From: an uncultured delta proteobacterium
GTDB taxonomy: Bacteria; Desulfobacterota; Binatia; UBA9968
Direction of reading: 5' to 3'
Assembly: GCA_963760795.1 (NCBI GenBank)
Contig: CAVXEP010000012.1
Location: forward strand, 256,001 to 320,000
DNA length: 64,000 nucleotides
Positions 7,640 through 57,317 of the stretch are shown here, one piece after another; position 1 is the first letter of the stretch; each line of letters begins with the position of its first letter. Below the pieces are notes generated by a model, which had not been told where the DNA came from, did no database searches, and worked only from the letters and a program-made list of their open reading frames with translations. Position numbers and translations under genes: made by a program.

Positions 7640-7661
7640 CTATTAGACCTTGGTCCAATAG
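7640..7661. promoter_or_regulatory. Palindromic box CTATTAGAC-CTTG-GTCCAATAG
   Basis: One of 8 related palindromes; about 170 bp upstream of the DUF4105 gene. Confidence 0.65.
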
Positions 7662-7842
7662 GCAGGCTGCTGAAAAAGACCCCTATGCCGATTGCCCTGA
7701 GCATTGTCGAAGGGTGCGCTCAATCGCCTCGCTGCGACGTATTGAGAGCACGCCCTTAGCCTATCCTGAGAAGTCGAAGGAAGCGAATTCGAAGGATCGA
7801 TTTTTCGCGCGCCTCGCCTCTGGATCTTTTTGAGCAGCCTGC
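7662..7842. mobile_element. MITE-like element with IS5/IS1182-like ends
   Basis: TIRs GCAGGCTGCTGAAAAAGA and TCTTTTTGAGCAGCCTGC; second copy inverted at 58878-59006. Confidence 0.75.
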
Positions 7843-7897
7843 TAGTCCATGACAGTTACTTACCGCGTAGCATTGCCTTGCCATGACTCGATAGGGG

Positions 7898-9337
7898 TCA
7901 CCTGGGCGGCGGCGGATCGAACCAGCCGCCGTCGGGCGCAATCGACGCGCTCGCCTGGGCCGGCCCCCATGTGCCCGGCTCGTACTCGTAAACGGGAGCC
8001 GCATCGCCCAAGATTGGATCCACTATCCGCCATGCTTCTTCGACATAGTCCTGGCGCGCAAAGCGACCGGAATTACCCCGCATCGCGTCATACAACAGTT
8101 CCTCGTAAGCGCCCATCTCGGCGGGATCGGATTGCTGGCTGATCACGAGTTCGACCTGTTGGCCTTCGAGCGGCTCGCCGGCTTTCTTCACCAAAGCGCC
8201 GACCGCAATCATCAGATCGGGTGTCACGCGGAAACGAAAATAGTTGGCCGGAAGGGGAATCTCCGAGAAGACCGCCGGAGGCTGGCGCAGCTTGACGATG
8301 ACCTCGGTTGCCGTCACGGCAAGGCTCTTGCCGGCGCGGATGTAGAACGGCACACCCTTCCAGCGCCACGAGTTGATCTCAAGCCGCAACGCCACAAAGG
8401 TTTCCGTCTGAGAGTCGGCCTTGACGCCTCGCTCGTCGCGATAACCGCGAAACTGACCGCGCACCACGTCTTGCGGCCGGAGCGGGCGAATTCCTTTGAG
8501 CACCTTGGCTTTTTCGTCCCGCAACATCTCGACATCCACGCCGGGCGGAGGTTCCATGGCAACGTTGGTCAGCACTTGCAGCAGATGGTTTTGCACGACG
8601 TCGCGGAGCACCCCCGTGCGATCGTAAAAATTGCCGCGACCGTCGACACCGAAGTTTTCCGCCATCGTGATCTGCACGCTTTCGACGCACTGGCGATTCC
8701 ATAGAGGCTCGAGAAAGGAATTGGCGAAGCGGAAGAAGAGCAGATTTTGCACCGCGTTTTTGCCCAGATAGTGGTCGATACGAAAAACCTTTGCTTCCTC
8801 GAAGACCTCGTGCACCACCCGGTTCAGAGACTTCGCTGTCGCAAGATCTTGTCCGAAAGGTTTCTCGATGACGATGCGCGCGCCCTGGGCGCAACCCGAT
8901 TCGCCGAGTTGATGAATTACCGTCTCGAACAGGATGGGCGGAATGGCCAGATAGTGCAGCGGCTGCTTCGCGTCGCCCAGTTTCCGGCGCAACTCCTGAA
9001 AAGTCGCCGCCTCGCTATAGTCGCCGTCTACGTAGTCCATGAGGCCGCTCAAGCGGCCAAATGCGTCCGGGTCAAAACCGCCGTACCGTTCGACGCTGTC
9101 CCGCGCGCGTGCTCGAAGTTGGTCGAGCGTCCAGCCGGCTTTGGCGACGCCGATAACCGGGATGTCGAGATTGCCGCGTTTGGCCAGCGCTTGCAGGGCG
9201 GGAAATATCTTCTTATGGGCGAGATCCCCGGTAGCGCCAAAGAAAACCAGCGCGTCGGAAGAGCCAGCGCTTGGGGCAATGCCTTCTTTCATAGTTTCGA
9301 ATATCGTGTTCATGTCACTCAGCGCTTTCGCTACCAC
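7898..9337 (-). CDS. zwf: Glucose-6-phosphate dehydrogenase
   Basis: [32 protein letters not shown]. Confidence 0.96.
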
Positions 9338-9413
9338 GCTTTTGTTTCATAAACCGCATGTCCTTCTTGCGAAAATTCGCATGTGTATGGGTGCTGTCAA
9401 TTTTTGCTTTGTC

Positions 9414-9452
9414 CGAATTGTCTCGAATTTCGAGCTTCGAGTTTCTAGTCTT
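9414..9452. repeat. Degenerate 7-bp tandem repeat (TTCGAAT-like)
   Basis: cgaattgtctcgaatttcgagcttcgagtttctagtctt. Confidence 0.4.
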
Positions 9453-9682
9453 GTCTGTGCTTCTCAGTCATTGGCGGCCCCTTCGACTTCGCTGCTACGT
9501 GGATGTCAAGGCACTAACAGACGAATGCTCTTAATTCTCCTATGACTTTACTTCCTCACCCACCCAAGAGAGACTCACTGCTATGCGTGACACGGCACAA
9601 AGCCGTCACACCTGTCGGCGAGCGTTGCCACGATTGATCACGCGGTAGCAGATCTCTCCAACGGATTCTCTCCCTGCCTGCT

Positions 9683-11619: not shown

Positions 11620-12701
11620 TTAACCGGCCGGGATCGTTATGACAGGTGCGCCTTGTCTATCACCCGAGTCGGTGAGCGTGAAGAGAAACATGATAAAAGA
11701 AAACAATCTCTTAGAGGCGAAGTCTTTGTCGTCGATCCAGTACCAGTCTTGACCATACGGCACGGCAGCAAAGGCGTCGTCGGGTTTTTGCGATGAGCTG
11801 AGAATCCGTATAAGTGCCGGCACGGGAGCACCGTTTACTATCTCCGGCGCAGGGGTGGGAAACGTGCGCTTTTGCTCCACCTTGGCGGCCGGTACATCAA
11901 TGTAAGAAGAGAGATCGGTAATGATTTCAAGCACGGAACGGGTCAGCAGGGCGATCTCTTTGTCATTGGCGGGCACCGAGCCGTAGACCACGTCAAACTC
12001 TTCGGTCCGCGGATCGACACCGAGGAGTTTGCGTACTTCATCGCGGTCCGTCGCTATCGCTGGGTCTAACTTCTTACTAAATACGATTGCCGTCGCCGAC
12101 TGGGCGCCGGTTTTTTTCACCCGCAGGCCGATTTGTCCGGATTGCTGAATGTTGCGCAGCTTCTCGACAAGCGGAAAAAACTCCGGATCGGCCTCGCGCG
12201 CCCGTGCACCATAGCCGTAGCGGCTATGAATGCCATTGATGGCATGCACGGTGAGCCGCAGCACCACATCGACCGGATAGCCGGCCTGGAGAAAATTTAG
12301 AATCGCCGCGGGCGGGATCGGCGTCATGAGACTGCGGGCGAACTTGTCCCCGCTAAGCGGCGAGTAAGTGACGGTCGGCCTTTCTCCAAAAGTCCCCGCG
12401 GCCGAAACACCGACGGATGAAGTAAAGGGAAGTTGCAAGAGATTTTGCCACCAGGAACCCGAAACTGCCGACGTGTGCCCTGGTAGCCGGTCTGGGTGAT
12501 CACCGAAGTGACATCGAGAAAGACCGGCGCATCCGCGTAGCGCAGTTTGACCACATTGAGCAGCATCTGTGCCTTCCAGGAATCGGAGATTGCCGAAATG
12601 TAATCAAAGCGATCTCGCGCCACGGTACGGGGTCCGATACTGCTGCAACCGCTCAGTCCAGCCAAAATTAGAACTACAACTGGGAACATTTTCCACCGCA
12701 T
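11620..12701 (-). CDS. Conserved hypothetical lipoprotein, frameshifted near 12450-12475
   Basis: LSGC lipobox, SIGPRTVARDRFDY, LLNVVKLRY, PTVTYSPLSG, WYWIDDKD; two ORFs join. Confidence 0.75.
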
Positions 12702-12716
12702 GTTTCTCTCCTCACG

Positions 12717-13773
12717 TCAGTTTTGCAACGACTGTCGCGTCCAGATGCGACCATCGAGCCAGTAGTGGCAGAAGAGACCGCCCGTTCCAAGCGGCGCCAG
12801 CCATGCAAGGTCAAACCAGCCGCCGGCGCAGGCTCCGACGAAACCGATAACAGGCCAAACAGCAAAAGTGGCCGCGTGTCTTAATTCGGTTTGAAAGCGG
12901 CGCCGCGTTTCAATTGACTGCACGCCGGACCTGTTTACCGCGGACTCCATGCCTGTCCGGCTTCTATCATAAAACCCGTCTGGGCGACTCATGGCGTACG
13001 TGAAATAGAGATATTGCACTTCGTGATGCACGGCGAGAACCAATAAAAATGAAACATTGGACGCGCCGAGCACGTAGCCGCTGCCGAAGGCGACGCCATG
13101 GGCGAGCACCACCCACCACTCGCCTGGATGGATGCCGATCTCAGTTTTGCCGGGCGTTAACGTCACTCTGTCGACGCGGCTCTCTCGCAGCGTCCAGACA
13201 AAATAGGCGATTACCCAGAGCAGCGCGCCCAGGCCTACGGTCCAAGCTATTTCTGCTCCGACGCTCAGGGCGACATAGGGTTGGCCTTCGTATTCTTCAG
13301 GCGCGAGATGCGTGTATGCGAGCACAGCCGCCAGCATGGGCAGATAGATGGCGCCGCGGAACAAAACTTCATGGGTCCGCGACACCGGCCCGCCCATGCC
13401 GCGCTGGTAAAAGCGCGCCACTCCCAGACTCTGGCGGCCGCGGTGCCAGACGGCAGCGTACATAGCGATCGATGTGAGTCAAGATCGTTTGCCCGCCCAG
13501 CGAAAGAGCGTAGGTCGTTAGCAGAATGATCAGAGGGATCAGAACGACATCAACTTGACGATGACGCCACAGCCGCCGCCGTAACACGGCATCGTAGGTT
13601 GCTCCCAGATGGAATTCCGATAAGACGAAGTCAATGGCATCGATTTCTCGGTCGCCGCGCAGAAATATCAGAAGCATCGCCGCCAGCAGCCCGATCGAAG
13701 CTCCGCCGCAGGCCAGCCAGAAATCCGCGCGGCGAGAAAAAAGCCAGAGGGACCGTTCGGATGTGGCTTTCAT
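12717..13773 (-). CDS. Hypothetical integral membrane protein with spaced His motifs, frameshifted near 13480
   Basis: Multiple TMs; EFHLGATY, WHRGRQ, HHEVQY, HYWLDGRIW. Confidence 0.65.
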
Positions 13774-14184
13774 GGTCTTGCGTTGTTCCTCGCTCACTTC
13801 ACCAAACGCTGGGGCGCGCGCTGTCACAGCTTTGGCTCTCTCTTCATCTCGGACCCTCACAAACAGTCTCACACCAGAGTTCGTCTGAGCGCTCGAAGCT
13901 GGCGGATAGAGCGGATCAGCGGCGCCTGCCGCCAGCGGTTCTGGGCATGTTCCAGACATGTTCCGGATAGAACCATGCCGCAGAGAAAGAAGGCGACGCT
14001 CGTGATCTTGACGGTGCCAGAAGCGTAGTGGGCTTTTCAATGCCCTTCGGCATCACCTTCGAGGCTGACAAATTGCGCCCATATCCAATCGCCCGTCTCG
14101 GTCAGGACGCGAAGACCGCTAACTCGCCGCGTTTCGGGAAGCTGCGCGCGCCGCCTGAAACTACCGCGCGCGCTGAAGCACCGT

Positions 14185-14206
14185 CTATTGGACTTTAGGG
14201 CAATAC
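14185..14206. promoter_or_regulatory. Palindromic box variant CTATTGGAC-TTTA-GGGCAATAC
   Basis: Matches the motif family; upstream of the 13773 gene. Confidence 0.5.
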
Positions 14207-14490: not shown

Positions 14491-15793
14491 TCAGGATGGT
14501 TTCGTTCCAGCTTCGCTAACCTGCTGCGCAGTGGAAGATTCGCGCGGCTCGCTGCTCCAGCTCGCCGTGTCCGCGCCCATCTTTTCGCCAAGATCCGCGA
14601 GATTGTTCATGGTCTCTTTATGGAAAGGTGTCGGCGCGGGTGGAATCCAGTCTTCGGGAATTGACACGATACGCACCTCCACATCGGCTTTCCGCTTGAG
14701 CCGTGAGATCTCGGCCATCGCGAAGAGATGCCGCACCGCGGTCGCCGTAGCCGCGCGCGTGGATGTCTCCAGGCTGCGTTGAACGACTGCCGGCCAGTTA
14801 GGCGCCACCGGTTTAGGCACCGGACGGAACTGGTTGTTGAAAATCACCCAGAAGCGAAACTTAGGAGCGCGGTGGTTCGGATAAGCTTCCTGCCATAGGG
14901 CCGGCAGGTTGTCCTCTTCCGCTATTCTACCGCCGTAGATGATGTTTCCGGTCACCCCACCGTCGACGTAGAGCTCTCCGTCGATCATGCGGAACGGAAA
15001 CGCGCCGGGAATCCCCGCCGAGGCGAGGATAATGTTGTGAACGCGCTCAAGGTCTGCCGAATCGACAGCCCGCTGCGCTTCCGCCACCAGGTCGAACACC
15101 CGCGGCTGTCCTATGTCAAGCTGCGGTCGTGTTGACTAACAAAAGACGGCCGTCGGCGCCCGCTCTCGTGATCCGGCCAAGCATGTCCATGGTGATGTGC
15201 TGGCGTATCTCCCGCTCCAGTCCAGGTACCTCGGCGAACGAAATGTTGTCCGGCAAGAAATAAAGGTATCCGCGCTGCTTCACCCAGTCCTTCTTCGGGT
15301 TGCGATACATGTTTAGGATCTGCTCGATCGACTGTTCGTCGCCCAAAAATGCGAACGGAGCGATCAGCGTTCCCGTGCTTACGCCAGTCACGGCGTCGAA
15401 TTCCGGCTTGGCCAGCGGATGAGACACTGGCACCTTCTGCCAACCTTTGAGAAATCCCGCGCCGAAGGCTCCCCAGTCGCCCCCACCTGAGATCACCAGG
15501 ATGTCGACCGCCGGTGGTTCTTTCCGCCCGTCGGCGGCATAATGGTCGTACTTGGCCTTGATGCGTTTAACCAGGCGGCCAAGCAACTCGCGGGCTACTT
15601 CGGATTGCTCATCTGCCGTGGTGCGCCGTTTAAGGAGATCCGGCGCCGCAACTTGCGGGCGTTTTAGCCAGGCGCCATAGCCCCACAGTGGCCGTCCGCT
15701 GATTGCTCCCACCAATGAGAGCAAGCGCCGTGTGGCCACCGCTGCGCCAAGCACGACACCCGTGGCAAGGATTAAAGATGTTCTCACTCGCAT
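14491..15793 (-). CDS. Patatin-like phospholipase, frameshifted near 15115
   Basis: SGGGDWGAFGAG, GVSTG, ASAGIPGAFP, YVDGG. Confidence 0.88.
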
Positions 15794-16219
15794 AGGCTCC
15801 TCCGAGCAGGATAGATTAGCGCGCGCCGCAGAACCGTCTATACCAGATCTCACCGCCTGGAATTTTATCCCAGAACGCCTCGTCGACTTTCTTCCACGTC
15901 GGACTTTGCCGCACTCCCCGATAGCGGGCCAGCGCTCCGGCGAACAGTCGCAGAGTTTGTAGACGAAAGTAATACGGGCGTCAAGCACTCGCCTTCTTGT
16001 GCGGGCTTCGGATGGAACGCCTTGCAGTTCTATCTCGACGCCCCCGCTCTTGCGCGCTAACGTCGAATCTATCGCAGGTTGCGGAAAAACTCACGCACGC
16101 TTTACTTCTTGGTTATTTTGTATTCACGGCTGTCGAGAAAATTGAAAGTCTGAATAACCTGATTGGTCGGCTCATAACCGCGGTAAAGAAAATAGGTTTG
16201 AATGATGGAGCGCTTCCAT

Positions 16220-16430
16220 TTGGCGTGTCGGTCGCCAACCACTGGGATTTTGCTCGCTAGAGATTCTTCGCCGAGCCACAGGTAGGTCCATCCTGCGAGA
16301 AGGCACCGATGATTGGCGCCAGCCAAAAGAGCCAGAGTTGGGAAAGCGCCCAACCTCCGACAAAGATCGCTGGACCCGTGCTTCTGGCCGGATTGACCGA
16401 GGTGTTGGTTACGGGAATGCTGATCAAATG
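16220..16430 (-). pseudogene. aqpZ: aqpZ C-terminal duplicate fragment
   Basis: Aligns to 18240-18450 ([21 protein letters not shown]...[10 protein letters not shown]...GWTYLWL). Confidence 0.85.
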
Positions 16431-16434
16431 AGGG

Positions 16435-16765
16435 TCAAAATGAACTACCTGTATTTCGCCGAGCTCATTGTTGTTCCCCTATTCCGTTCTCGCGCCATGC
16501 GCGGCAAACTTCCGTAAGAGAGCAAAACTCCAGAGCTTTTTCGACAGTACCTAATCCGCCGAGGATCGATCTAGTGGATCTAAGGTCCAATAGATACAGC
16601 GCCATTAAGGAGTCGAAGCGGACCCTTAAAGCTAATGCAGTCCGATGTTGAAGCAGAAAAGAAGATATTCAGCAGGCGGGAAACAAGTCTTACAGGCCAT
16701 CCATGCGCGCATTGTTCGGGATCCCGTGATCGAGCACCCCGCGGCAACGGGCGAATCATGCAACT
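16435..16765. repeat. Diverged copy of aqpZ upstream region (about 19130-19465)
   Basis: Shared blocks such as cgccgagctcattgttgttcccctattcc and gtccgatgttgaagcagaaaagaagatattcagcaggc. Confidence 0.88.
16571..16593. promoter_or_regulatory. Palindromic box variant CTAGTGGATCTAAGGTCCAATAG
   Basis: Paralogous position of the 19266 box. Confidence 0.5.
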
Positions 16766-16930
16766 GTGCCGGTGGGCAAGCCTCATTGAGCCTGTTTTCC
16801 CGGTTCAGAGTTCAGTAGCTCTTTGAGTGCGCAGGCCCCGCGACTTATGGCAATGTGGTAATTGATGAACCCCTGCAATTTGCTGCAGCTATACCCTTTC
16901 ATTCCAGGTCAACGGCATTTGTCAGGTCCT

Positions 16931-16976: not shown

Positions 16977-16981
16977 CCTCG

Positions 16982-18234: not shown

Positions 18235-18975
18235 TTAACGCCGTGGTGGGTCGCCCTCTATTGGAACTCTCGTTGCGGGCTCTTCTTCGCTGAGCCACAG
18301 GTAAGTCCATCCGGCAATGACGGCACCGATTATTGGTGCGACCCAGAAGAGCCAAAGTTGCGAGAGCGCCCAACCCCCAACGAAAACTGCTGGACCCGTG
18401 CTTCTGGCTGGATTGACCGAGGTATTGGTTACCGGGATGCTGACCAAATGAATTAGGGTTAAGGCGAGGCCAATAGCGATACCAGCAAACTCCTCAGGCG
18501 CGCGTCCGTGCGTAGCACCCAAGATAACGATAAGAAACATGTAGGTCATCACAATCTCGCACACGAATGAGGCAACGAGAGAGTAGCCACCTGGCGAATG
18601 AGCTTCATAGCCATTCGCAGCAAATCCGCTTTGAACGACATCAAATCCCGCTTTGCCGGTCGCGATAATATAGAGCACAAACGCGCCGGCGATCGCGCCA
18701 AGCACTTGCGCTACGATGTAAGGAATTAAATCCGAAGCGGGAAAGCGTTTACCGGCCCACAAACCGAAGGAAACCGCCGGATTAAGATGACAACCCGAGA
18801 TGTGGCCGACAGCGTAGGCCATACTCAAAACGGTTAGACCGAACGCTAAAGAAACTCCGTAAAATCCGATCCCGAGATTAGGAAACGCCGCTGCCAATAC
18901 CGCGCTTCCACACCCTCCTAAAACCAGCCATAAGGTTCCAATAAACTCTGCAACCAGCCGCTTCGATAACTTCAT
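18235..18975 (-). CDS. aqpZ: Aquaporin Z
   Basis: [11 protein letters not shown] and [12 protein letters not shown] motifs, HSPGGYS loop. Confidence 0.97.
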
Positions 18976-19265: not shown

Positions 19266-19287
19266 CTATTGGACCTTAGTCCAATAG
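19266..19287. promoter_or_regulatory. Perfect-armed palindrome CTATTGGAC-CTTA-GTCCAATAG
   Basis: 9-bp perfect arms; about 290 bp upstream of aqpZ. Confidence 0.7.
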
Positions 19288-19531: not shown

Positions 19532-21016
19532 TCACGGCAGCTTTTGCAGCCTTAAGACGTGGTAACGCCAGGGAGCGAGATCGACATAGAGACCGCGCGC
19601 TTGCAGATCGTTACCGTCGCGATCGTAGTGCGTCATTTTCCAAGCACGATCCTGCAAACGCCATCGGCTGTTGGCAAATCGGCGAACGGCAGTCGGACAC
19701 AGCACTGGCTCTGGTTCGGCGCATAGTTGACCGTCACCAGCAGCCGCTCGCCGCCAGCAGCCCTGCCAGGCGAAAGCGACAAAACAATCCCACGTCCAGT
19801 TGCCGTCCCAGGCGGGAACGCATTCGAGCAGCTGCCAGTGACCGTTGCGTACGACGTCGTGGCGCAGCACGGCAAGCAACCGGTCATAGAATTTCTTCAC
19901 CCGCTCATCGACCGGCTCTTCCGGCCCTCGCACCAGATGCGGTGAAATCCGCTTCTTCCGAGCCTCGAATTGTCCCTGATGAAAGAATCGTAGCCCAGGC
20001 GACAGGAAAGTAATTACCGCCGCAGCTTCATGAACTGCCGGTGAGAAAGTCGCGGCCGCGCGCGGCTCGTCGTGGTTTTCCAGAAAGCGCGCGAGCTTGT
20101 TCTGGTAATCCAACCCCGCGTGAAAATGCTCGCGCACCGGCCGCGCATGACCCTCGCGCAGGCGGTCGTATAGCCGTTTGTCGTAAGCGTAATCGAACCC
20201 CTGTTGCAGCAGCGTCCATTCCCGATCCCAGTAGACCTCGGCCATGAACTGGAAGTTCGGATGCTTGCGCCGCGCGGACTCGGTTGCCTTGGGCCAGAAC
20301 AGCTCAGCCCGGATGCCCCAGGTGCTTTCGAATACGTCGGGCAAGAGCAGCATGGCCATGTCGCAGCGCACGCCGTCGCATTGCCCGGCGATTCTCTCCA
20401 GCTCGCCGATCATCGCCTGCTGCAAATCCGGGTTGCCGTAGTTGAGCTGCAGCGTGTCGGGCCAGCCGTCAAAGTACGGGTCGCGCCCGTAGGCGAGCAC
20501 CAGCGGGCCGTTTTTCGTTTGCACCCGGCAATAGTTCTGCGGCGCGCGAGCCAAATCACTCTCGCTGCCATGGACAAAGTAGTCCGGATGCTCGTCGACC
20601 CAGGGGTGATCCGGCGCCATATGGTTGGGGACAAAGTCGAGCATCAGTTTCAATCCGCGTTTTTTCAGCCGCTGTTGCAAACGGGCGAGCGCCGCATCCC
20701 CGCCGAGATCGCGATGCACGGTGTAGCTTTGGATGGCAAACCCGGAGCCGGCGATGTCTGCTTCTTTGAGATCCGGCAACGTTTCGTGAAATTCCTTGCG
20801 CCATCCGGCGTTGCTGCGTGACACCTGCTGCGCCGCCGGTCCGGTCTGCCAGACGCTCAGGAACCAGACCCAGTCAAAACCCAGCTGCGGCAAGTCGATC
20901 CAGCTCGGCGTCCGGAATATCGTCCAGAGTCGCTGCCCGACCAAGCTATGAGACATCGCTGTCAGCCAGACTCGGCTGTTGATTTGGTAAAGTGAAGGAG
21001 AGCGACGATCGGACAT
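19532..21016 (-). CDS. GH13 alpha-amylase family protein (compensating frameshifts near both ends)
   Basis: LDFVPNH, DGVRCDMA, AEVYW, FLENHDE; out-of-frame patches read TLDDIPDAELD and RLLVTVNYAPNQSQC in other frames. Confidence 0.9.
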   Translation of the reverse strand: MSDRRSPSLYQINSRVWLTAMSHSLVGQRLWTIFRTPSWIDLPQLGFDWVWFLSVWQTGPAAQQVSRSNAGWRKEFHETLPDLKEADIAGSGFAIQSYTVHRDLGGDAALARLQQRLKKRGLKLMLDFVPNHMAPDHPWVDEHPDYFVHGSESDLARAPQNYCRVQTKNGPLVLAYGRDPYFDGWPDTLQLNYGNPDLQQAMIGELERIAGQCDGVRCDMAMLLLPDVFESTWGIRAELFWPKATESARRKHPNFQFMAEVYWDREWTLLQQGFDYAYDKRLYDRLREGHARPVREHFHAGLDYQNKLARFLENHDEPRAAATFSPAVHEAAAVITFLSPGLRFFHQGQFEARKKRISPHLVRGPEEPVDERVKKFYDRLLAVLRHDVVRNGHWQLLECVPAWDGNWTWDCFVAFAWQGCWRRAAAGDGQLCAEPEPVLCPTAVRRFANSRWRLQDRAWKMTHYDRDGNDLQARGLYVDLAPWRYHVLRLQKLP

Positions 21017-21025
21017 ATTTACGCC

Positions 21026-23766
<2,741 letters not shown>

Positions 23767-24071: not shown

Positions 24072-24092
24072 CTATTGGACCTGGTCCAATAG
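24072..24092. promoter_or_regulatory. Palindrome CTATTGGAC-CTG-GTCCAATAG
   Basis: Perfect arms with a 3-nt spacer (possibly one base lost); upstream of the glucosidase. Confidence 0.65.
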
Positions 24093-24147: not shown

Positions 24148-24169
24148 CTATTGGACTCAAGGGCAATAC
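24148..24169. promoter_or_regulatory. Palindromic box variant CTATTGGAC-TCAA-GGGCAATAC
   Basis: Same arms as the 14185 box; 76 bp from the 24072 box. Confidence 0.55.
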
Positions 24170-34500: not shown

Positions 34501-34506
34501 TGGCGT

Positions 34507-38221: not shown

Positions 38222-39650
38222 TCACCGCCACCGCAATGTCTGACGCGCGCGCCGCACGACCGCGAAACGCGAGTATATCCCTTCATTGCCATCGCTCGGG
38301 CTGATGCTCACCAGATCGTAAAGCCCGCCGAAGCGGCTATCGCCGCCAGCGAGAGCGCGCAAGCGATTGCCGGCCATGACTTGGTAGCCGTCCAAATGGG
38401 TCCAATGCGGCCATTTTCCGAAACCCCGCTCGCGGCCAAAGCGCGCATATAGATCATAGGGAATGCAAACCAGGCGAAACTCGACCGGGTCCAGACCGAG
38501 GTCGTTCTGGAGGATTTCGCTTCCGCGACGCATGAGCGTGGACTCGATCTCGATACGAGAGTGGCCAACTCGTTTAGCAAACCCCAATGCCGCCAAAAGC
38601 TTTGACGGCGCGTCGGCCGATTCATCTTCGGCGAAGTCTTCCAGCAGCACGGTTTCCGCAGTCGGCGGCGGCAGGTAGCGCGCTCCTCCTGAATTGACAA
38701 AGATCTGCTGAATGAACTGTCCCGCGAGCACCCGACTCTCTTCGGTGTCGAGTTCAGCGGGAATTCCCAGCTCAGCCAGGGCGCGCGAGCGCAGCACCCC
38801 CTCACGTTCCATATCCGGATTGGACGGCACCGGCTGGTCGACATGGGTGTAAATGGCTTCCCGAACCTTGGCCAATTCGGCCAATGGCGCCGTGCGCGCT
38901 TGCACCAGTCCGAGATCGCGAGCCCGCTCGATCACTTGAGGTGGAAACGGCACGGAAAGATCGATGGGACATTGGTAGCGGCTGAGCTCCACCGGGGCGC
39001 TCCCCGGGGCGGCCGCGGCGCCGCTCTCTTTCCAGTCCTGCAGCTCTTTCGCCAGCCGTTGCAGCGCGGCGGCGTCGCCGCGTTCCGCGGCTTCCATGGC
39101 CAGCTGCTCCACTTGAGCCCGATCGCGCTGCGAACCCTTTTGCGAAGTGGCTGCGCTTTTCAGTTCCAGCGCGGCAAAATAGCCGCGCCGCTTGTCATAG
39201 AATGCGCTGCTAGCGCTGTCCAGTTTCGCCAGCGATGCAAAGGCGTTAGTCAACTGAGTGCGAAGTTCCGCTTGCCCTGCCAGGGCCTCCGCTCCAAGGT
39301 GTTTACCGGGTGAGAAGGGTTCAAAAACAACCGCATCCGCGTCGTAGACATCCTTTCCCATGACGGCCAGGTTGCGCATCTTCGCCAGCCCATTGGCGCT
39401 GGCTTTCGATCCGCGCCGACAGCTCGGCCGCTTGCGTCCACTCGCGGTGCAACACCGCCGTGCGGCTGCGGCGCACGAGGTCGTCGATCTCCTCACCGGT
39501 AGATCCAATGGCGCGATAGGCGATTTCATCCAGGGTGGAACTCAAAAGTTCGCGCGCCCGGCGCAGATGGATATCGCGATAGACCGTATCCAACTTAGCG
39601 ACTTCCACCAACAAACCAACAATCTTGATATTGTTTGCATCCTTTGCCAT
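38222..39650 (-). CDS. Hypothetical protein of about 475 aa, frameshift near 39400
   Basis: AGGAGG RBS; ORFs 39321-39650 and 38222-39529 join; no family recognised. Confidence 0.65.
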
Positions 39651-47467: not shown

Positions 47468-48322
47468 TTATAAAACGATCTCTCCCGTAGCGGGCACGGC
47501 CAGCACCGGACACGGAGCGTCACGGACCACAAGTTCCGTCACCCTTCCACGCATGGCATCGACGATGCCATTCGTGCCTTCAGTCGCCATAACGATCAGA
47601 TCAGCGCTTTGGGCGCTGTTTAAGATCCTTGCCACCACGTCGCCCTCGCGGCGCAGCTCCTTCCAGACCCAGGCTTTGCCCTCCGGGCGATCGACGCGCG
47701 GAAACTCGTTGCCATTGACGTGAAGAAGGACGATTTCTACGCATTCATCGCCCAATGCTTCGGCGGCGCGGGTCGCCCGGATCACAGCTTCGCGCGAGTC
47801 CGGCATGTAGTCGATAGGCAAGAGAATCCGTCGCAAGTGAATGTCTCCGTCAAGCGAGACGATGCCGCGGCAACCGCGGGGCACGAAGAGCGTCATCGCA
47901 TTCGTCCGACGGGCGACTGCTTGGGCCACGGACGGTTTAAGCCAGAGCGGCAAGCCGCGCCGCCCGCCTGTGGCGAGGACCACTAGGTCCGGTTTTTGTT
48001 TCTCGATTTGACGCATGCTCGTCTTTATCGGGTCTCCTTGCGCGCTTACCTTAATGATACGCACACCGAGCTTTTTGAAAACCATGGACGAGGGCAGCCT
48101 CCCGCTTTCGATCACCTGCCAACGTGCGAGCGTCTTGCGGACCGCGGGGAACTGGGACCAATCTTCCGATTTGCCGCGGCGCGCATGCATAATGATCAAT
48201 TGGGTCTTCCTCAGTAGAGCGATGGCGAGGGCGTGGGCAAACGCCAATTCGCTCGCCTCGGAAAAATCCGAGGGATGAAAAATCGACTTAACAAAAGGGA
48301 TCGTCTGTGCTTGCGTGCTCAT
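47468..48322 (-). CDS. Universal stress protein (tandem USP)
   Basis: IFHPSDFS, DLVVLATGGR, ILLPIDY, DLIVMATEG, VRDAPCPVLAVP. Confidence 0.92.
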   Translation of the reverse strand: MSTQAQTIPFVKSIFHPSDFSEASELAFAHALAIALLRKTQLIIMHARRGKSEDWSQFPAVRKTLARWQVIESGRLPSSMVFKKLGVRIIKVSAQGDPIKTSMRQIEKQKPDLVVLATGGRRGLPLWLKPSVAQAVARRTNAMTLFVPRGCRGIVSLDGDIHLRRILLPIDYMPDSREAVIRATRAAEALGDECVEIVLLHVNGNEFPRVDRPEGKAWVWKELRREGDVVARILNSAQSADLIVMATEGTNGIVDAMRGRVTELVVRDAPCPVLAVPATGEIVL

Positions 48323-48617
48323 GGTCTCGCGCCCCGTGCAGTGCATTTAGCCGCGCCGGTAAAATTTTTGTACTGACGATGGCAGGTAAGGTGATTGGGT
48401 TTCGCCAAGTTACTCAAGGGAGCTCCTGGAAACTAGGTCACGTCGAGTCTTCTCGATCACCAGATATTTCGACCTTCCCTCCATCGCGTCACTCCTACCT
48501 AAATCACTCTAGACTTCACCTCATCTCCCACGCTGTAGGTGATCCCGTCGCCTTTGCGCTACAGAGCAACATTTCAGCGGCTCTACGATGACTTGTAACG
48601 AAGAGCGAAAAGCGCCG

Positions 48618-48637
48618 CTATTGGACCTTAGTCCAAC
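48618..48637. promoter_or_regulatory. Palindrome CTATTGGAC-CTTA-GTCCAAC
   Basis: 19 nt identical to the 19266 box; upstream of the USP gene. Confidence 0.65.
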
Positions 48638-48928
48638 CTGGTACCGGCAAGCAATCCGAGCTCGTGTGTTGGTAGGATCGACACAAGCAACGAGAGCTCC
48701 AAACCGGCATCGGTGAAGCCTTCAGTCAGCACAATGCCTATTTATTACCGAGATTCTGAATCAGCTTATTGCGAGCACCAAGGGCAGGCAAATCGCCGTC
48801 GAGACGGGCGAAGAAAATGATTCCAAAGACTGTGCACAATCGGCAGTAATGGGTCGACGCCAGAGCGCTTAGCGCTAATCCGCTAAGAAACAATGAGCTA
48901 GTGAACTGTAACGCTTGATGCGCGTAAA

Positions 48929-50535: not shown

Positions 50536-51984
50536 TCAGCGCAGCATTACCCAGGGCACGATGATCACCATATAAACGCCGAGGTAAATGAGCCCGAAGA
50601 TCGCGCCGAGACGCCACCAGTCAGCCGACGGTATGAAGCCGCTGCCGTAATACACCGGGCTCGGCCCTGTACCATAGGGCGTAATGATTCCCATGATGCC
50701 GAGTTGGAGACATAGCAATAGCGCCATCTTCTCGACCGGCATACCTGGAATCGACGCGCCCACCGCCAGCAGCACCGGCAACACGGCGGTCACATGCGCG
50801 GTCACGCTGGCGAACAGGTAATGGACAAAATGATTGACGAGCGCAAGCACGATGATCGCCATCACCGGAGTCATTCCGCCCAGTTGGGCTCCGACAGTTT
50901 CGGCGAACCACTTGATAAATCCAACCCGCGCCAGACCGTCGGCGAGCGCCACCAGCGTGGCAAACCACGCAAGCGTGTTCCAGGCGTCCTTGTACGAGGT
51001 CATGTCGCTCCACTTGATGACGCCCGTGATCAGCAGCAGGCCGATGACGACCAGCGCGACCGTGGTCGCATTCATCAAGTCGGCGCCAAAGACCCACAGC
51101 AGCAGTGCGGTCAGTACGAATACCAGCAGCAGGATTTCATTCCTTGTCAGGCCGCCCATCTTGGCCAGTTCACCCGCCGCCCATTTCGGTATTTCTTCTC
51201 CGGCCTTGATCTCGGGAGGATAGAGCCAGTACGCGAGCAGCGGCACCAGCGCGAGCAGGATGAGCCCGGCGGGAATGAATGCGAAAAACCAGGTGATCCA
51301 CTCAAACTCAATATTGACGGTCTTCTTGACTATTTCGATCGCCAGTACGTTTGGCGCGAGACCGGTCATGAACATCGAGCTGGTCACGCAAGTGGCGGCA
51401 ATGGCGACCCACATGAGATAGGAGCCGATCTTGCGCGCTGACGGGTCATTCGGCTTCGAGTCATACAACGGCGGCAAGTTGCTGATGACCGGGTAGATCG
51501 TGCCGCCGCTACGCGCGGTATTGGACGGCGTAAACGGGGCGAGGGCCAAGTCGGCGACCAAGACTGCGTAGCCCAGCGTTAAGGTTTTCCTGCCCATGGC
51601 CTGCACCAGAATCAGCGCGATACGCTTGCCGAGTCCGGTCTTGTCATAGCCGAGAGCAAACATGAACGCGCCGAAGATCAGCCACACCGTCGTGTTGGAG
51701 AAGCCGGAGAGCCCCCATGCGAGCGATGCATTGGCCGGATTGAAGCCAGGCTTAGCGAGCTGCTCCGGGCTGTAGAACGCGTATTCGGAGAGCAGAATGA
51801 CGATGGTTACACCGATCAACCCGATGGCGCCGCCGGGCAGTGGCTCAAGAATCAGGCCGACTATGACGCCGACAAAAATCGCGAAGTAATACCATGCATA
51901 CTGCGGCAGCCCCGGCGGGGCGGGGATGAGAGCGATAACGATCGCGACCGCAACGGGCGCAAAATGTTTCCAGGTGAGATTCAT
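50536..51984 (-). CDS. DASS family anion permease (CitT/TtdT-like)
   Basis: PFTPSNTARSGG, HYLFASVTAH, TPYGTGPSPVYYGSG. Confidence 0.93.
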   Translation of the reverse strand: MNLTWKHFAPVAVAIVIALIPAPPGLPQYAWYYFAIFVGVIVGLILEPLPGGAIGLIGVTIVILLSEYAFYSPEQLAKPGFNPANASLAWGLSGFSNTTVWLIFGAFMFALGYDKTGLGKRIALILVQAMGRKTLTLGYAVLVADLALAPFTPSNTARSGGTIYPVISNLPPLYDSKPNDPSARKIGSYLMWVAIAATCVTSSMFMTGLAPNVLAIEIVKKTVNIEFEWITWFFAFIPAGLILLALVPLLAYWLYPPEIKAGEEIPKWAAGELAKMGGLTRNEILLLVFVLTALLLWVFGADLMNATTVALVVIGLLLITGVIKWSDMTSYKDAWNTLAWFATLVALADGLARVGFIKWFAETVGAQLGGMTPVMAIIVLALVNHFVHYLFASVTAHVTAVLPVLLAVGASIPGMPVEKMALLLCLQLGIMGIITPYGTGPSPVYYGSGFIPSADWWRLGAIFGLIYLGVYMVIIVPWVMLR

Positions 51985-52008
51985 GTTGCCTCCTGATCGA
52001 ATCGCAGT

Positions 52009-52749
52009 CTATTTCCATCCCGCCGTGACCATTTTACGCCGCAGAAACGCGATCTGCGTCGCCAACGGCAGATTTTTCGGGCAAACGTCGTGGCAGGCGA
52101 GCAGCGACATGCAGCCGAACACGCCGTCGTCATCGCCGATCAATTCGTAATAGTCCGCATCGTCACGGCGGTCGCGCGGATCGATCCGAAAGCGGGCGAT
52201 CTTGTTGAGCCCCACCGCGCCGACAAAATCTTCCCGCATGCGCGCCGTGCCGCAACCCGCAACGCAGCAGCCGCACTCGATGCAGCGGTCGAGCTCGTAG
52301 ATCTTTTCCGCCAGCTCCGGCTCCATCCTTTCTTCGAGACGGCGCAGATCCGGCTCCTGCTCCTTCATGTGCAGCCAGCTCTCCAGTCGCTCGCTCATGC
52401 CGCGCATCCAGTTGCCCGTGTCCACCGACAAGTCCGCGATCAGTTCGAACACCGGCAGCGGCGCCAGCGAGATCTCAGCGCCGAGGTTTTTCGTCAGCGT
52501 GCGGCAGGCGAGGGTCGGGCTGCCGTTGATCAGCATGCCGCAACTGCCGCAGATGCCGGCGCGGCAGACAAAGTCGAACTGCAGGGACGGATCTTGCTTC
52601 TCGCGGATCTCGCTCAAGGCGATGAACAGCGTCATATTTTCAGCTTCTTCGAGCTCGTAAGTCTGCATGCGCGGCACGCTGCCGGACTCCTGCGGGTTGA
52701 AGCGTAGAATGCTGATCTTCAGCGCGCGCCGCGCGGCTTCATTTTTCAT
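52009..52749 (-). CDS. frdB: Fumarate reductase iron-sulfur subunit
   Basis: CRAGICGSC, CIECGCCVAGC, CMSLLACHDVCP. Confidence 0.95.
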   Translation of the reverse strand: MKNEAARRALKISILRFNPQESGSVPRMQTYELEEAENMTLFIALSEIREKQDPSLQFDFVCRAGICGSCGMLINGSPTLACRTLTKNLGAEISLAPLPVFELIADLSVDTGNWMRGMSERLESWLHMKEQEPDLRRLEERMEPELAEKIYELDRCIECGCCVAGCGTARMREDFVGAVGLNKIARFRIDPRDRRDDADYYELIGDDDGVFGCMSLLACHDVCPKNLPLATQIAFLRRKMVTAGWK

Positions 52750-52802
52750 CTCCGTCCTCCGATATGGTTTGCAAATTCCCTTGCTTCGAGACTGAACGTC
52801 AC

Positions 52803-54206
52803 TCACATTCCCGGAGTGATCATCTCTTCGGGCTTGATCCACTTGTCCATGTCCTCAGCCTTGACCAGGCCCAGCGCCAGCGCGGCTTCCTTGAGAGTAG
52901 TGCCCTCGGCGTGGGCCTTCTTGGCGATCTTGGCGGCGTTGTCGTAGCCAATGTGCGGATTGAGCGCGGTGACCAGCATCAGGCTTTTATTCATCAGCTC
53001 GTCGATGCGCGCAGTGTTAGGCCGGAGGCCCGCGATGCAATGGTGCGTGAAGCCCTCGACCCCCTTGGCCAAAAGCTTGGCCGAGTGAATGAAATTGTGG
53101 ATGATCAACGGCTTAAAAACGTTAAGCTCGAAGTTGCCGCTGGCGCCGCCGACATTGACAGCCACGTCGTTGCCCAAGACCTGGGCGCAGATCATGGTGA
53201 GAGCCTCGCTCTGGGTCGGATTGACCTTGCCGGGCATGATGGAGCTGCCGGGCTCGTTCTCCGGAATGCTGATTTCGCCCAGGCCGGCGCGGGGACCCGA
53301 GGCCAGCCAACGCACGTCGTTAGCGATCTTCATCAGGGAACAGGCCAGGGTCTTGAGTGCTCCATGAGCAAAAACCAATGCGTCATGGCCGGCCAAGGCT
53401 TCAAATTTGTTAGGGGCGCTGACGAAGGGCTGCCCGGTGAGCGCGGCGATCTTGGCTGCGCCCTTGGCGGCGAACTCGGGATGCGTGTTGAGGCCGGTGC
53501 CCACCGCCGTGCCGCCCAGCGCCAGCTCGTAAAGGTGGGGCAGGGTCATGGCGATGCGCTGTATTCCGTGGTCCACCATCTGCGCCCAGCCCGAAATCTC
53601 TTGACCGAGGCTCAGCGGCACCGCGTCCATCAGGTGGGTGCGGCCGATCTTGATCACCTTGTCGTAGGCGCTCGCCTTGTCGTCGAGGTTCTTCTTCAAA
53701 TCCTTCAACGCCTCGACCAGGCCGGCCAAAACCTCCACGGCGGCAATATGCATGGCGGTGGGAAAGGTGTCGTTGGAGCTTTGCGCTTTGTTGACGTCGT
53801 CGTTGGGGTGGATCGGTTTCTTGCTCCCCATCACGCCGCTGGAAATTTCGATTGCCCGGTTGCTGATGACCTCGTTGACATTCATATTGGTCTGGGTGCC
53901 CGAGCCGGTCTGCCAAATGACCAGCGGAAAATGGTCGTCAAGCCTTCCCGAGATAACTTCGTCGGCGACCTGCGTGATTAGGTCGCCCTTTTCATTGTCC
54001 AGAAGTTTCAGCTCGACATTGGCCATGGCTGCGGCCTTTTTCAGGATGCCGAAGGCCTTGATAAGCTCTCGCGGCATCGTGTCCCGCCCCGCCCCGGCCT
54101 GGAAATACTTCAGCGAACGCTCAGTCTGAGCCCCCCAATAACGGTCCGCCGCGACCGCAATTTCACCCATGGTATCTTTTTCGATGCGAGTGTCAGCCAT
54201 TGCCAT
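52803..54206 (-). CDS. fumC: Class II fumarate hydratase
   Basis: [36 protein letters not shown]. Confidence 0.97.
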
Positions 54207-54237
54207 GCTCCTTTCTTCTGCCGCTCCTTCCGGAGCG

Positions 54238-54266
54238 GTTCAAAGTTCAAGGTTCAAAGTTCAACG
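54238..54266. repeat. GTTCAAR heptamer x4
   Basis: gttcaaa gttcaag gttcaaa gttcaac between frdA and fumC. Confidence 0.75.
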
Positions 54267-54284
54267 TCAGACCCGGAACTAAAG

Positions 54285-56264
54285 CTAGAGTCTTTCGTCA
54301 ATCCGTTCATTCCTGCCGCGGAGAGGTTTGGGCAACAGATGTTCGTAGGACATCAGCTGCTCTTGCACCGCGAAACGGTCGGCGCCGTCGCGGCGCTGCT
54401 GAAGCGCTTCGATCTCGGCGAGACGCTTGGCCGTGTCGGGATGGTCGATGTGATCCTTGGCGCCGTAGCCGCGCCAGCCGGGCGGCAGCTCCATCTTCAT
54501 GATGTCGAGTTGTTCGTAGGCGAGGGACGGCAGGGTGTCGGTCTCTGATTTCCAAGTGGCTAGAGTGCGATTCAGCCATTGGGCGTCGTTGCGGCGCGGA
54601 AAGTCCTCGCGGAAGTGAGCGCCGCGGCTTTCGGTTCGCTGGAGCGCGCCATAGGCGACACACAGTGCCATCTTGAGCATCTTCTGCACCCGATAGGCCG
54701 TCACCAGTTCGGGATTAGCGCCGCGCGCCTTGTAGCGCAGGCCGATGTTGCGACTGCGCAACGAAAGCTGCTGCAGTTCGTGCACCGCCTCCTCCAACAC
54801 TGGGCCTCTGCGAAAGATGCCGACTTTATTAGTCATGATCGTCTGCATCTGGGCCATGACCGCAGCGGCGTTTTCCGTGCCGCGGCCGTCGACCAAGGCA
54901 TCGATTTTTGCTTGCTCGCGCTGCAGCGTTTCCTGAATGAGACCGGTAGGAATACTCGCGCCCGGGTCGGACCGCTCGCAAAAATCAGCGATGAACTCGC
55001 CGACGATCATGCCGGCCGCCACCGTCTCGGCCACCGAGTTGCCGCCCAAGCGGTTAAAGCCGTGCATGTCCCAGCAGGCCGCTTCGCCGGCCGAAAACAA
55101 TCCCTTCAAGGTCGGGCTTTCGCCGGTGTGGTTGGTGCGCACGCCGCCCATGGTGTAGTGCTGCGCCGGCCTGACCGGCACCCACTCCTTCACCGGATCG
55201 ACGCCGAGAAAATAGTGGCAGATTTCATAAACCTCGCGCAGGTTGTGTTTGATGTGGTGTTCGCCCAAGAGCGTGATGTCCAGCCAGAGATGATCGCCGA
55301 AGGGTGTTTTGACGCCCTTGCCTTTGGCGATGTGCTCTTCCATGCGGCGCGAGACCACGTCGCGCGAGGCAAGCTCTCTTTTCTCCGGCTCGTAATCCGG
55401 CATGAAGCGATGGCCGTCGACATCTTTCAATAACCCGCCGTCGCCGCGGGCGCCCTCGGTAAGCAGAATTCCGGGAGGAAAGGCCGGCGTCGGGTGAAAC
55501 TGCACCGCCTCCATGTTGCCCAGGGCAGCAACGCCGGTCTCCAGCGCGATGGCGGTCGGAATACCTTCGGAGATCACCGCATTCGTCGTCACACGATAGA
55601 GCCGCCCTGCTCCGCCGCCGGTAATCGCGGTGGCCTTGGCGACGTAAGCAGCCAGCTCCCCGGTAACAAGATTTCGCACCACGGCGCCGTAACAGCGACT
55701 GCCGTCGTGGATCAACGCGATTGCCTCGGCCCTTTCATGCACCGGTATTTTCTGGGCAATCGCCTGATCGCTCATCGTATTGAGCATGGCGTGGCCGGTG
55801 CCGTCCGAAACAAAACAGGTGCGCCACTTGTTGGTGCCGCCGAAGGCGCGCTGAGCGATCAGGCCATGGGCTTCGTCGCGCTCGGTGATGGTGACTTTTT
55901 GGCCGTTGATGATGACGTCGCGATCGCCCTTGGTCACCCGGCTCCAGGGCAGGCCCCAGGCCGCCAGCTCGCGCACCGCTTTGGGCGCGGTATTGACGAA
56001 CATCCGCACGACTTCCTGATCGGCGCCCCAGTCGCTACCGCGGACGGTGTCTTCGAAGTGAATGTCTTCGTTGTCGCCTTGACCCTTGATCACATTGGCA
56101 AGACTGGCCTGCATGCCGCCCTGCGCCGCGGCTGAATGCGAACGCTTGGGCGGCACCAATGAAAGAATAATCACGTCGTGGCCGCGCCGTTTGGCGCCGA
56201 TGCCGATGCGCAGTCCCGCCAGCCCGCCGCCGATGACCAAAACGTCTGTGTAAATTATTTTCAT
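54285..56264 (-). CDS. frdA: Fumarate reductase flavoprotein subunit
   Basis: [42 protein letters not shown]; Wolinella/Desulfovibrio-like. Confidence 0.96.
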
Positions 56265-56331
56265 GGCTTACTTCTTCCTTTTGAAATGTTCGTCAGAAGT
56301 ACTTCAAGAAATTCTCTCCTGCCAAGCAACC

Positions 56332-57105
56332 CTAGCGTTGCTGCGCCGGCGCGCCGTAGGACGGCACATAGCGCTCGCCAAGCCGATCGCGGCGCTCGTG
56401 GCCGAGCTTCATGTACGCCGCCAGGGTCAGCAGTCCGAGCGTCAAGAAAAATATCGTGATTGCCCACTTGAGCCGTTTGAGTATTGTGCGCGTCCGATTC
56501 GGATCTTCGCCTTCGAACCAGCCCCACTTTACCGCCAACCGGTAAAGTCCGACGCCGCCGTGCAGTTCGACGGCAAACAACAGGATCAGATACAGCGGCC
56601 ACCAGCGGCCGCTCCACACGCGCTCCGCCGATTCGTAAGGGCCGATGTCGCCGGGATGCATGAGCATCTGGTATAGATGAACCGAAGCCAGAAAGAACAG
56701 CGCAAAGCCGGTCCACGCCTGCACCCACCACAGCGTGGTGTCCTCATGGCGCAGCATTTGCCGGTGGCTGGCGAAACTTTTGTATTCTTGAAAGTTCGCA
56801 GGAAATTTTCGCATGGCGAGCAAGCCATGGAGCACGAACATAAACGAAACCAAGACGACGACTGCAGCCACGATGCCGGGATAGCTTTTGCCCAGGATAA
56901 ACTGTCCCTCGAACATCTTGGTCACCCACCACATGGCATCGTTGCTGATCAGGATCGTCGACACGAAAGCCATGTGACCCCACATAAAAAGCCCGAGGAA
57001 CAAACCGCTGGCACTCTGGATAAGATCCAAGCGCGCCGGCCAGTGACTTTTTCGCGTTTTCTGGTCCAGACCGGTTCCGGCAATGACATCGACTTGATGG
57101 TTCAT
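56332..57105 (-). CDS. frdC: Fumarate reductase dihaem cytochrome b subunit
   Basis: QSASGLFLGLFMWGHM, HGLLAMRKFP, VELHGGVGLYRLAVKWG. Confidence 0.94.
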   Translation of the reverse strand: MNHQVDVIAGTGLDQKTRKSHWPARLDLIQSASGLFLGLFMWGHMAFVSTILISNDAMWWVTKMFEGQFILGKSYPGIVAAVVVLVSFMFVLHGLLAMRKFPANFQEYKSFASHRQMLRHEDTTLWWVQAWTGFALFFLASVHLYQMLMHPGDIGPYESAERVWSGRWWPLYLILLFAVELHGGVGLYRLAVKWGWFEGEDPNRTRTILKRLKWAITIFFLTLGLLTLAAYMKLGHERRDRLGERYVPSYGAPAQQR

Positions 57106-57116
57106 GGTATTGCTCC

Positions 57117-57237
57117 TCGTCTAACAATTACACGCTGATTACTTTCAACGAGGTCGTCACTGGCGAGAAGCCCGACTGGGTATTCGGGCGCCAGCTGTGC
57201 ATGCACTGCGAACACCCAGCTTGCGCGTCGGCTTGTC
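57117..57237 (+). pseudogene. HybA/FdnH-like 4Fe-4S protein internal remnant
   Basis: Manual translation NYTLITFNEVVTGEKPDWVFGRQLCMHCEHPACASAC. Confidence 0.75.
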
Positions 57238-57299
57238 GATCTGCGCCGTGATGCCGGCGGGCGAAAGATCGCCTTGACCTTGTGCTACCGCATAACACA

Positions 57300-57317
57300 G
57301 TTGAATCTTGGTCCAAC
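57300..57317. promoter_or_regulatory. Degenerate box GTTGAAT-CTTG-GTCCAAC
   Basis: About 200 bp upstream of frdC; right arm and spacer match the motif family. Confidence 0.4.

Follow-up and report, generated by a model that had tools for sequence, protein, structure and literature searches.

Eight related palindromic boxes lie along the window analysed here, a 64,000-nucleotide stretch from an uncultured delta proteobacterium (source assembly G000, 6.58 Mb; window, G000:C12:256001-320000; other G and L numbers denote compared genomes and loci). The palindrome is very probably the activator site of a FixJ/StyR-type response regulator, P0001, encoded with a membrane kinase at the head of a gene island that extends beyond the window. 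Five features read from the sequence carry this case: the box itself; its clustering; its fixed distance from a −10-like element; its association with the regulator; and the domain architecture of the proteins. The resulting two-component regulon is apparently undescribed but conventional, an activator with a dyad site being an ordinary design.

The refined box has the consensus TATTGGAC-YWWR-GTCCAATA, which becomes ATTGGAC-YAAR-GTCCAAT when oriented by its spacer. An earlier note on this DNA had listed eight boxes outside genes. Each was recovered within 1 base of the place given, and all eight are intergenic, the next minus-strand open reading frame (ORF) having its first possible start 146-584 bp away. 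As a set they are not uniform: five are good, with 0-2 mismatches to TATTGGAC-N4-GTCCAATA (7641, 14186, 19267, 24149, and 48619), whereas 24073 has a 3-bp spacer and both 16572 and 57299 look decayed. Shuffled versions of the window contained a mean of 0.04 such sites, and five were reached in 0 of 100 shuffles.

All eight boxes are on the minus strand. The perfect box at 19267..19286, upstream of aqpZ, is followed by TANNNT at offset 23, as is the box at 14186..14205, which has a variant distal arm and lies upstream of an unannotated membrane-protein operon. The box at 7641..7660 (TA at offset 23) precedes an Lnb_N (DUF4105)/hydrolase unit, and that at 48619..48638 (TA at offset 22) heads a long unit: universal stress protein (USP), ChaA, ion channel, CHAD, PPK2, SulP, and Na/H exchanger. 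Two boxes precede the GH63-GH13 genes. One, at 24073..24091, combines perfect arms with the 3-bp spacer and has TACTCT at offset 22; it is the sole perfect N3 site in the whole genome, and its short spacer is retained in the one short-read contig with all gaps listed. The other, at 24149..24168, is weaker and has no −10 at the usual offset. It shares the altered arm GGGCAATA with the 14186 box, as the earlier note observed, and the flanks of the two are not alike. Of the decayed boxes, 16572..16592 (5-bp spacer, changed arm) is upstream of an aqpZ fragment and a patatin gene. The second, 57299..57318, between nrfA and frdC-frdA-fumC-frdB-DASS, has no −10 at the usual offset and scores 12.6 bits, i.e. 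among background matches. Three other loci (two of the three found by motif) have intact boxes before frdC with which it aligns, and it shares a TATGCG flank with its G018 counterpart.

Across the genome, 10 of the 11 N4 sites with at most two mismatches fall within C12 263.6-360.2 kb. The span is therefore about 97 kb, extending 40 kb past the window, rather than the roughly 50 kb first proposed; six further boxes lie outside the window at C12 323380-360153. When the genome was scored with a matrix derived from 11 of the island sites, those same sites took the top 11 ranks, and leave-one-out matrices found no equal match on other contigs for 9 of the 11. Weaker matrix matches outside the island (15-21 bits, at C1 144665, C5 49648, and C12 151211) may be remote regulon members.

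The far end of the island supplies a candidate for the binding protein. The earlier note had supposed a NarL/FixJ-family regulator encoded outside the window and had proposed looking for one alongside a kinase. A LuxR-type helix-turn-helix (HTH) response regulator does lie 40 kb beyond the window, next to a PAS kinase, and the dyad is assigned here, on sequence grounds, to this protein of the FixJ/StyR type. The island terminus consists of a single receiver gene with its own box (C12 359666-360061); the gene for P0001 (C12 360381-360992), which pairs Response_reg with GerE, i.e. a receiver with a LuxR HTH; and the kinase gene (C12 360986-364832). The module boxes are at C12 359624 and 360153. 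P0001 is the sole full-length FixJ-type protein in G000; four other matches that cover the HTH are 28-32% identical. The kinase comprises a periplasmic PF04392-type domain, one membrane helix, several PAS domains, HisKA, and HATPase, and its gene is intact in G018 (1259 aa). Among receiver-gene homologues, a box lies 88-101 bp upstream in 14 of 17, in a sample partly found by motif.

Promoter geometry suggests what the box does. The spacer centre is AA or TT in 190 of 201 boxes, though the search pattern permitted any WW, and 177 distinct boxes were oriented to read YAAR in the spacer, ignoring genes (the sample includes related genomes and is not independent). In this alignment T occupies +23 in 62% and A occupies +24 in 70%; TANNNT at offsets 21-23 occurs downstream in 81 of the 177, versus 10 upstream. 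A −10-like TA sits 22-23 bp downstream of the box, on the side predicted by the spacer. With the T at +23 taken as −12, the centre of the box falls at −43.5. Box orientation agrees with the direction of the next ORF in 34 of 41 cases (crude ORF call), and five of the seven exceptions have a homologue-confirmed gene on the predicted strand. Between box and −10, no conserved −35 hexamer was found among the 177 oriented boxes. This layout would be that of activator-dependent promoters. An 18-20 bp site centred near −43.5 does extend to the −35 region, so that the regulator might instead repress, blocking polymerase until a signal arrives; EL222 can repress when its site is placed in the promoter core, according to an excerpt of PMC10521638. 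Such a role is highly improbable here: the −35 hexamer is missing, as expected of activator-dependent promoters; the spacing from box to −10 is tight to 1-2 bp; and the DosR box at hspX, likewise centred near −43.5, activates (excerpt of PMC13486717).

The assignment to P0001 draws on the company that the box keeps. Among relatives, each of ten regulators with the recognition helix EKT[VI]KVHR (L017-L026) has a box 99-507 bp past its 3' end, before the receiver gene, whereas paralogues with EIT, ERT, or DRT helices (L029-L032) have none (0 of 4). In a protein-first sample, comprising 80 metagenome loci fetched by the regulator protein alone (the best 80 of 601), a box lies near 21 of 28 EKT[VI]K.HR regulators versus 3 of 52 others (Fisher p 1.6e-10); a reversed-matrix control on the same loci gave 0 matches. 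An exact 18-mer scan of GTDB yielded at least 126 loci, 80 of them with flanks, against about 140 chance matches expected at even base composition. Among the 80, a full-length regulator lies within 3 kb in 14, versus 0 of 1061 background G000 tiles, and an island gene (at least 40% identity, 3 kb) in 28, versus 7 of 1061; many of these 28 belong to this lineage, and chance accounts for some of the loci. Several are inside genes (e.g. pta, pfkB, an ABC ATPase). The loci listed include Verrucomicrobiota, Bacillota, Gemmatimonadota, Acidobacteria, alpha-, beta-, and gammaproteobacteria, and deltaproteobacteria. On a Paraburkholderia plasmid the regulator and kinase are accompanied by a perfect box; homologues on Microvirga and Sinorhizobium plasmids have other helices and no box. 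At L204, a regulator with helix ERTVKAHR is followed, 11-75 bp past its gene, by three variant boxes in tandem, spaced at 22 bp and with TTGTAC/TTGCAC arms; this may be a naturally occurring variant of specificity.

Related genomes carry the system unevenly. Of 24 genomes in the same genus, 10 contain 5-23 sites and 8 contain 1-2, and the remaining 6 lack the motif; one site was found in 1 of 16 more distant genomes, and a reversed-pattern control gave 2 matches across 41 genomes. The regulator is present in 12 of the 24: 8 of the 10 motif-rich genomes, 4 of the 8 intermediate ones, and 0 of the 6 motif-free ones. In G018, 24 of 25 sites fall within 160 kb around the regulator. An exact search across the phylum found 1-2 sites in 5 of 300 other genomes; the control also gave 5, so that draw shows no enrichment, and the system is patchy.

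Conservation of boxes upstream of orthologues, a check proposed in the earlier note, holds for some genes of G018, fails for others, and holds for fewer in G019. G018 boxes precede frdC, patatin, the membrane operon, one of two GH63 copies, the RND unit, and the receiver gene. The boxed GH63 copy has two boxes, one of which faces a divergent PLD gene, and the frdC-frdA-fumC-frdB-DASS order is retained. The membrane-protein operon is boxed in G018 and unboxed in G019, and the Lnb_N unit has no box upstream in 3 of 3 orthologues of G018 and G019. The box-aqpZ arrangement recurs in the betaproteobacterial locus L072 (found by motif). Because the box is kept before some targets but not others, boxes appear to head operons whose first gene varies.

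What the system might sense can be read in part from the kinase. Residues 485-605 form a PAS domain whose best matches are the haem-PAS domains of FG214, DosP, and FixL, and it looks like a haem-PAS sensor with putative haem binding. In FG214 the proximal ligand is H156 (excerpt of bioRxiv 10.64898/2026.03.15.711900); the His matching it by spacing is kept in 6 of 6 covered box-linked same-genus kinases. The same excerpt describes a G-rich FG214 DNA site, different from the box, and FG214 is therefore informative for the PAS domain only. The sole structural match to the periplasmic domain is 3lft (E 0.002), an uncharacterised structure, so that no ligand can be named. A second haem-PAS-like domain with His and Met belongs to a hybrid kinase just outside the island (L003:15069-14695; C12 ~375 kb).

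Among the predicted targets in the lineage are fumarate reductase, NrfAH, decarboxylase-antiporter sets, cation/H+ exchangers, carbonic anhydrases, DUF308, and phosphoketolase; at distant motif-found loci the genes include NhaA with a glutamate symporter, Orn/Lys/Arg decarboxylase, carbonic anhydrase, and patatin. The predicted G000 island targets are best read as a response to low oxygen combined with acid load, and hypoxia and acid stress, proposed in the earlier note, are still the foremost candidate signals. As the main input, oxygen or redox state is quite possible, short of an even chance; acid is a more doubtful candidate, and a periplasmic metabolite equally so. The kinase may integrate more than one input. 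At L015:2-781 (minus strand) a box is flanked on one side by a pentameric ligand-gated ion channel-like gene and on the other by an alpha carbonic anhydrase; a proton-gated channel there would fit an acid signal. In three Bacillota metagenome-assembled genomes (L052, L060, and L063), the kinase-regulator-box-receiver module heads desulfoferrodoxin and a POR-family oxidoreductase, a redox-type cargo unlike that of the G000 island.

Several observations weigh against P0001 as regulator of such a programme. The kinase gene is split into two ORFs in G000 (C12 363630-363946). Five more distant kinases (two from Burkholderiaceae, three from elsewhere) lack the haem His, and 2 of 6 genomes retain the Met that matches FG214 M172. 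The cargo is not fixed: in the metagenome loci, island genes accompany 3 of the 24 loci with a box and 4 of the 56 without, and boxes elsewhere stand ahead of sulfatases, DUF2092, MarC, or desulfoferrodoxin with a POR-family gene. G018 has no box before USP, Lnb_N, SBP3, or DUF3300, and among the genes compared G019 has one only before the RND unit and the receiver. Seven of the 28 EKT-type regulators have no box in their locus, and the same-genus regulators L027 and L028, with other helices, have 2-mismatch boxes. In a tree of 84 regulators computed with the helix columns removed, 23 of 31 EK rows fall in one 26-row clade (SH-aLRT 97), and an independent-pairs test of the helix-box link gave a median p of 1, with too few pairs. 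The link is therefore to a subfamily; a causal role of the helix lysine in half-site choice is a hypothesis.

Motif-rich G005 and G010 (430 and 680 contigs) have no regulator match at E<=1e-40, which would fit a real operator bound by some other factor, with the FixJ-type module merely one of its targets. An AraC-family gene adjoins the kinase in G000, another lies inside the G018 island, and the module box stands downstream of the regulator gene, before the receiver gene; the binder could be that AraC protein or a regulator outside the island. AraC proteins typically use asymmetric or direct-repeat sites. The box, by contrast, tracks the regulator helix type in the protein-first sample and across phyla, and its core fits the measured consensus of EL222, as given in an excerpt, a protein that shares the helix EKTVK.HR. 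Another binder is thus unlikely.

The earlier note also offered a wholly different account, in which the palindrome is a target for recombination or insertion; applied to the island, it would drive the shuffling of gene blocks. A miniature inverted-repeat transposable element (MITE)-like sequence with GCAGGCTGCT ends (7662..7845) does abut box 7641, as claimed; it is inserted on the promoter-distal side, outside the motif. Gene order is also strongly reshuffled among G000, G018, and G019, and the 16572 box sits in a duplicated segment: a partial copy of the aqpZ promoter (16273-16770), 86% identical over 341 bp to the 19267 region and joined to an aqpZ 3' fragment. Contigs from 2 of 4 runs skip 16284-16597, a stretch missing from other strains. 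The element, however, adjoins 1 of 14 boxes, and its terminal motif recurs at six places (C12 ~314.9k, 347.3k, and 423.2k; C13 225k; C4 184k and 238k), none of which has an adjoining box. Reshuffling junctions are unboxed, e.g. OEP-ChaA-channel-nrfHA-G6PD-CHAD-PPK2 in G019. A one-sided −10 at fixed distance is unexpected for a recombination site; the boxes mostly face the next gene, as described above, and no recombinase turned up among 92 island ORFs scanned. At 24072, where a deletion scar had been proposed, a BLAST search of the flanks found no non-self matches. The box recurs neither at element ends nor at block junctions, and the insertion-target account is rejected as extremely improbable. 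The MITE-like family itself, with GCAGGCTGCT(G/C)AAAAA ends and variable palindromic interiors, is abundant in soil runs; in one, summed depth exceeds 1800 at 7822.

The activator assignment places the system among several known ones without making it a member of any. The earlier note had called the regulon DosR-like, which holds for overlap of the core and fails for membership, the regulator being of FixJ/StyR type and the exact DosR core absent. The 20-bp DosR consensus, TTSGGGACTWWAGTCCCSAA (excerpt of PMC2275270), shares the 12-bp core GGAC-YWWR-GTCC with the G000 box; its outer arms are TTSG, where the G000 box has ATT/AAT, and GGGAC-YWWR-GTCCC has 0 occurrences in G000. DosR reads GGGACT through K179, K182, and N183 (excerpt of PMC13486717), which correspond to K170, K173, and V174 of P0001 in a register taken from that residue list rather than a printed alignment. 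The two proteins match in the HTH only (E 3e-6 to 9e-6). They would share the site centre near −43.5 and a large stress regulon, which in the case of DosR responds to hypoxia, NO, or CO. The G000 sensor has PAS domains, whereas DosS/T carry GAF domains. The 92 island ORFs scanned include one USP gene, unlike the USP-rich DosR regulon. Membership of the DosR regulon was rejected on these grounds (outer arms, core count, HTH-only match, single USP) and on the G018 USP, which has no box directly upstream.

The best solved relatives of P0001 are PDB 1yio (E 6e-58), which we take to be Pseudomonas StyR, and FixJ 5xso (E 3e-44). Like P0001, the StyS/StyR and FixL/FixJ regulators join a receiver to a LuxR HTH in about 200 aa. 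FixL is the best NCBIfam model for the G000 kinase, which has a haem-PAS-like domain, and the FixL/FixJ(-FixT) layout has an adjacent single receiver, which in G000 has its own box. Resemblance is thus to FixL/FixJ/FixT in gene layout, and to DosR and EL222 in helix, core, and geometry, as far as sequence comparison goes. The FixJ model scores P0001 at 215.2 against a cutoff of 255, and FixL scores 379.6 against 850, on the C-terminal ORF of the split kinase. Unlike FixL, the G000 kinase has a periplasmic PF04392-type domain and several PAS domains, and whereas FixJ acts via FixK, P0001 would have many direct putative targets in one island. The island contains no FNR-type TTGAT-N4-ATCAA or relaxed sites, and no CRP/FNR-family match was found among the island ORFs scanned. 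FixL/FixJ membership was rejected on the sub-cutoff family scores and the lack of FNR-type boxes in the island. The recognition helix is EKTVKVHR in P0001, EVTVKVHR in 1yio, and PRTIEVYR in FixJ; StyS/StyR and TodS/TodT were rejected because the helix differs at the first base-reading position and no aromatic oxygenase is present among the ORFs scanned.

EL222 comes closest in DNA recognition. Its operator consensus, RGNCYWWRGNCY in an excerpt of PMC10521638, fits the 12-bp core GGACYWWRGTCC of the G000 box, YWWR spacer included, and its helix is SEKTVKMHRG where P0001 has VEKTVKVHRA. The EL222 site is shorter; the G000 box is longer (18-20 bp) and stricter. EL222 is a light-sensing one-component LOV-HTH protein, whereas the G000 input is a receiver domain with a separate kinase; P0001 is Response_reg plus GerE with no LOV fused to the HTH, and the LOV-HTH class was rejected. 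EvgS/EvgA of Escherichia coli is alike in its binding-protein-fold periplasmic sensor, LuxR-HTH regulator, 18-bp inverted repeat, and acid-survival targets. The EvgA box differs from the G000 box, and EvgA is distant from P0001 (NF007419, 62.9 bits against a cutoff of 251). The motif was not found in open-access main texts; supplements, motif logos, or databases such as RegPrecise could hold it.

A conventional mechanism would connect these elements. The kinase would phosphorylate P0001. A dimer of P0001 would then occupy the dyad, whose centre near −43.5 puts it where a −35 element would otherwise stand, and bring RNA polymerase to 11 or more co-oriented promoters. These would include the promoter of the adjacent single receiver gene, whose product probably damps the response by feedback, as FixT does. 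The proposed output is survival of low oxygen and acid load through fumarate and nitrite respiration, and aspartate and Orn/Lys/Arg decarboxylases with AspT antiporters; cation/H+ exchange, aquaporin, glucan turnover, PPK2, and lipid and envelope proteins may contribute. A broader and rather doubtful generalisation would be that of a widespread FixJ/StyR-type subfamily (at least six phyla) with a DosR/EL222-type helix, in which one lysine sets the GGAC half-site, and which in this soil lineage runs a freely reshuffled 100-160-kb anoxia and acid survival island via a kinase integrating a periplasmic ligand with haem-sensed oxygen. If true, the DosR dormancy programme would have a Gram-negative counterpart, and many orphan families (DUF3300, DUF2950, DUF4410, DUF2092, DUF3313, and Ysc84-like) could be given a condition in which they act. 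More immediately, a precise predicted operator is tied to a protein, a promoter geometry, and a candidate sensor, in a subfamily common in soil and sediment bacteria. The box could be used to read out the regulon in any genome, giving many genes of unknown function a shared condition, and cultured carriers exist (the Paraburkholderia plasmid); the kinase of that strain has no haem His, so its signal may differ.

The gene labels of the earlier note stand up to Pfam and NCBIfam (Lnb_N, aquaporin Z, GH63, alpha-amylase, patatin, USP, and frdC); its His-motif membrane protein matches no family in either. The following window features are all on the minus strand. The first gene past box 7641 encodes an Lnb_N-domain protein (6467..7471; PF13387; Lnb_N is presumably the former DUF4105), and the first past box 19267 encodes aquaporin Z (18235..18975; NF003838, above cutoff). 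The GH63 glucosidase (three ORFs) and a GH13 amylase-family gene occupy 19532..23766, and a tandem-domain USP 47468..48346 (PF00582). The frdC-frdA-fumC-frdB and DASS transporter genes span 50536..57105; frdC (56332-57105) and frdA (54285-56264) are ~70 bp apart, and fumC lies between frdA and frdB. The distal end of the RND efflux unit is at 60819..64000, and the box of this unit is outside the window at C12 323380. Past the window, the minus-strand island continues with the RND pump, OprD and OprB porins, two AspT antiporters, aspartate 4-decarboxylase, Orn/Lys/Arg decarboxylase, two DUF3300-DUF2950 pairs, PqiABC, SulP, and others. For DUF2950/DUF3300, a passage in PMC4653623 names no regulator. 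Rfam gave no matches in 124 kb, and there is no tRNA in five loci outside the window.

Frameshift-split genes are common in this region: patatin, GH63, HlyD, glycogen phosphorylase, nrfA, and the kinase (window 14491-15988, 21026-23766, 25761-26953, 34123-36660, and 57459-58809; C12 363630-363946). Short-read contigs show single-base indels at or near four of the window ORF breaks, so that many apparent pseudogenes may be assembly errors; the kinase break was outside that comparison. The glycogen phosphorylase region, with several breaks, may be a true pseudogene. Four stretches encode island proteins with no Pfam or NCBIfam match (window 4114-6220, 11620-14040, 37584-39529, and 60819-61343), 55-90% identical in relatives. 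Island proteins are 80-94% identical in records labelled Candidatus Binatia or uncultured delta proteobacterium, and the sequencing runs that contain the region are soil and sediment metagenomes.

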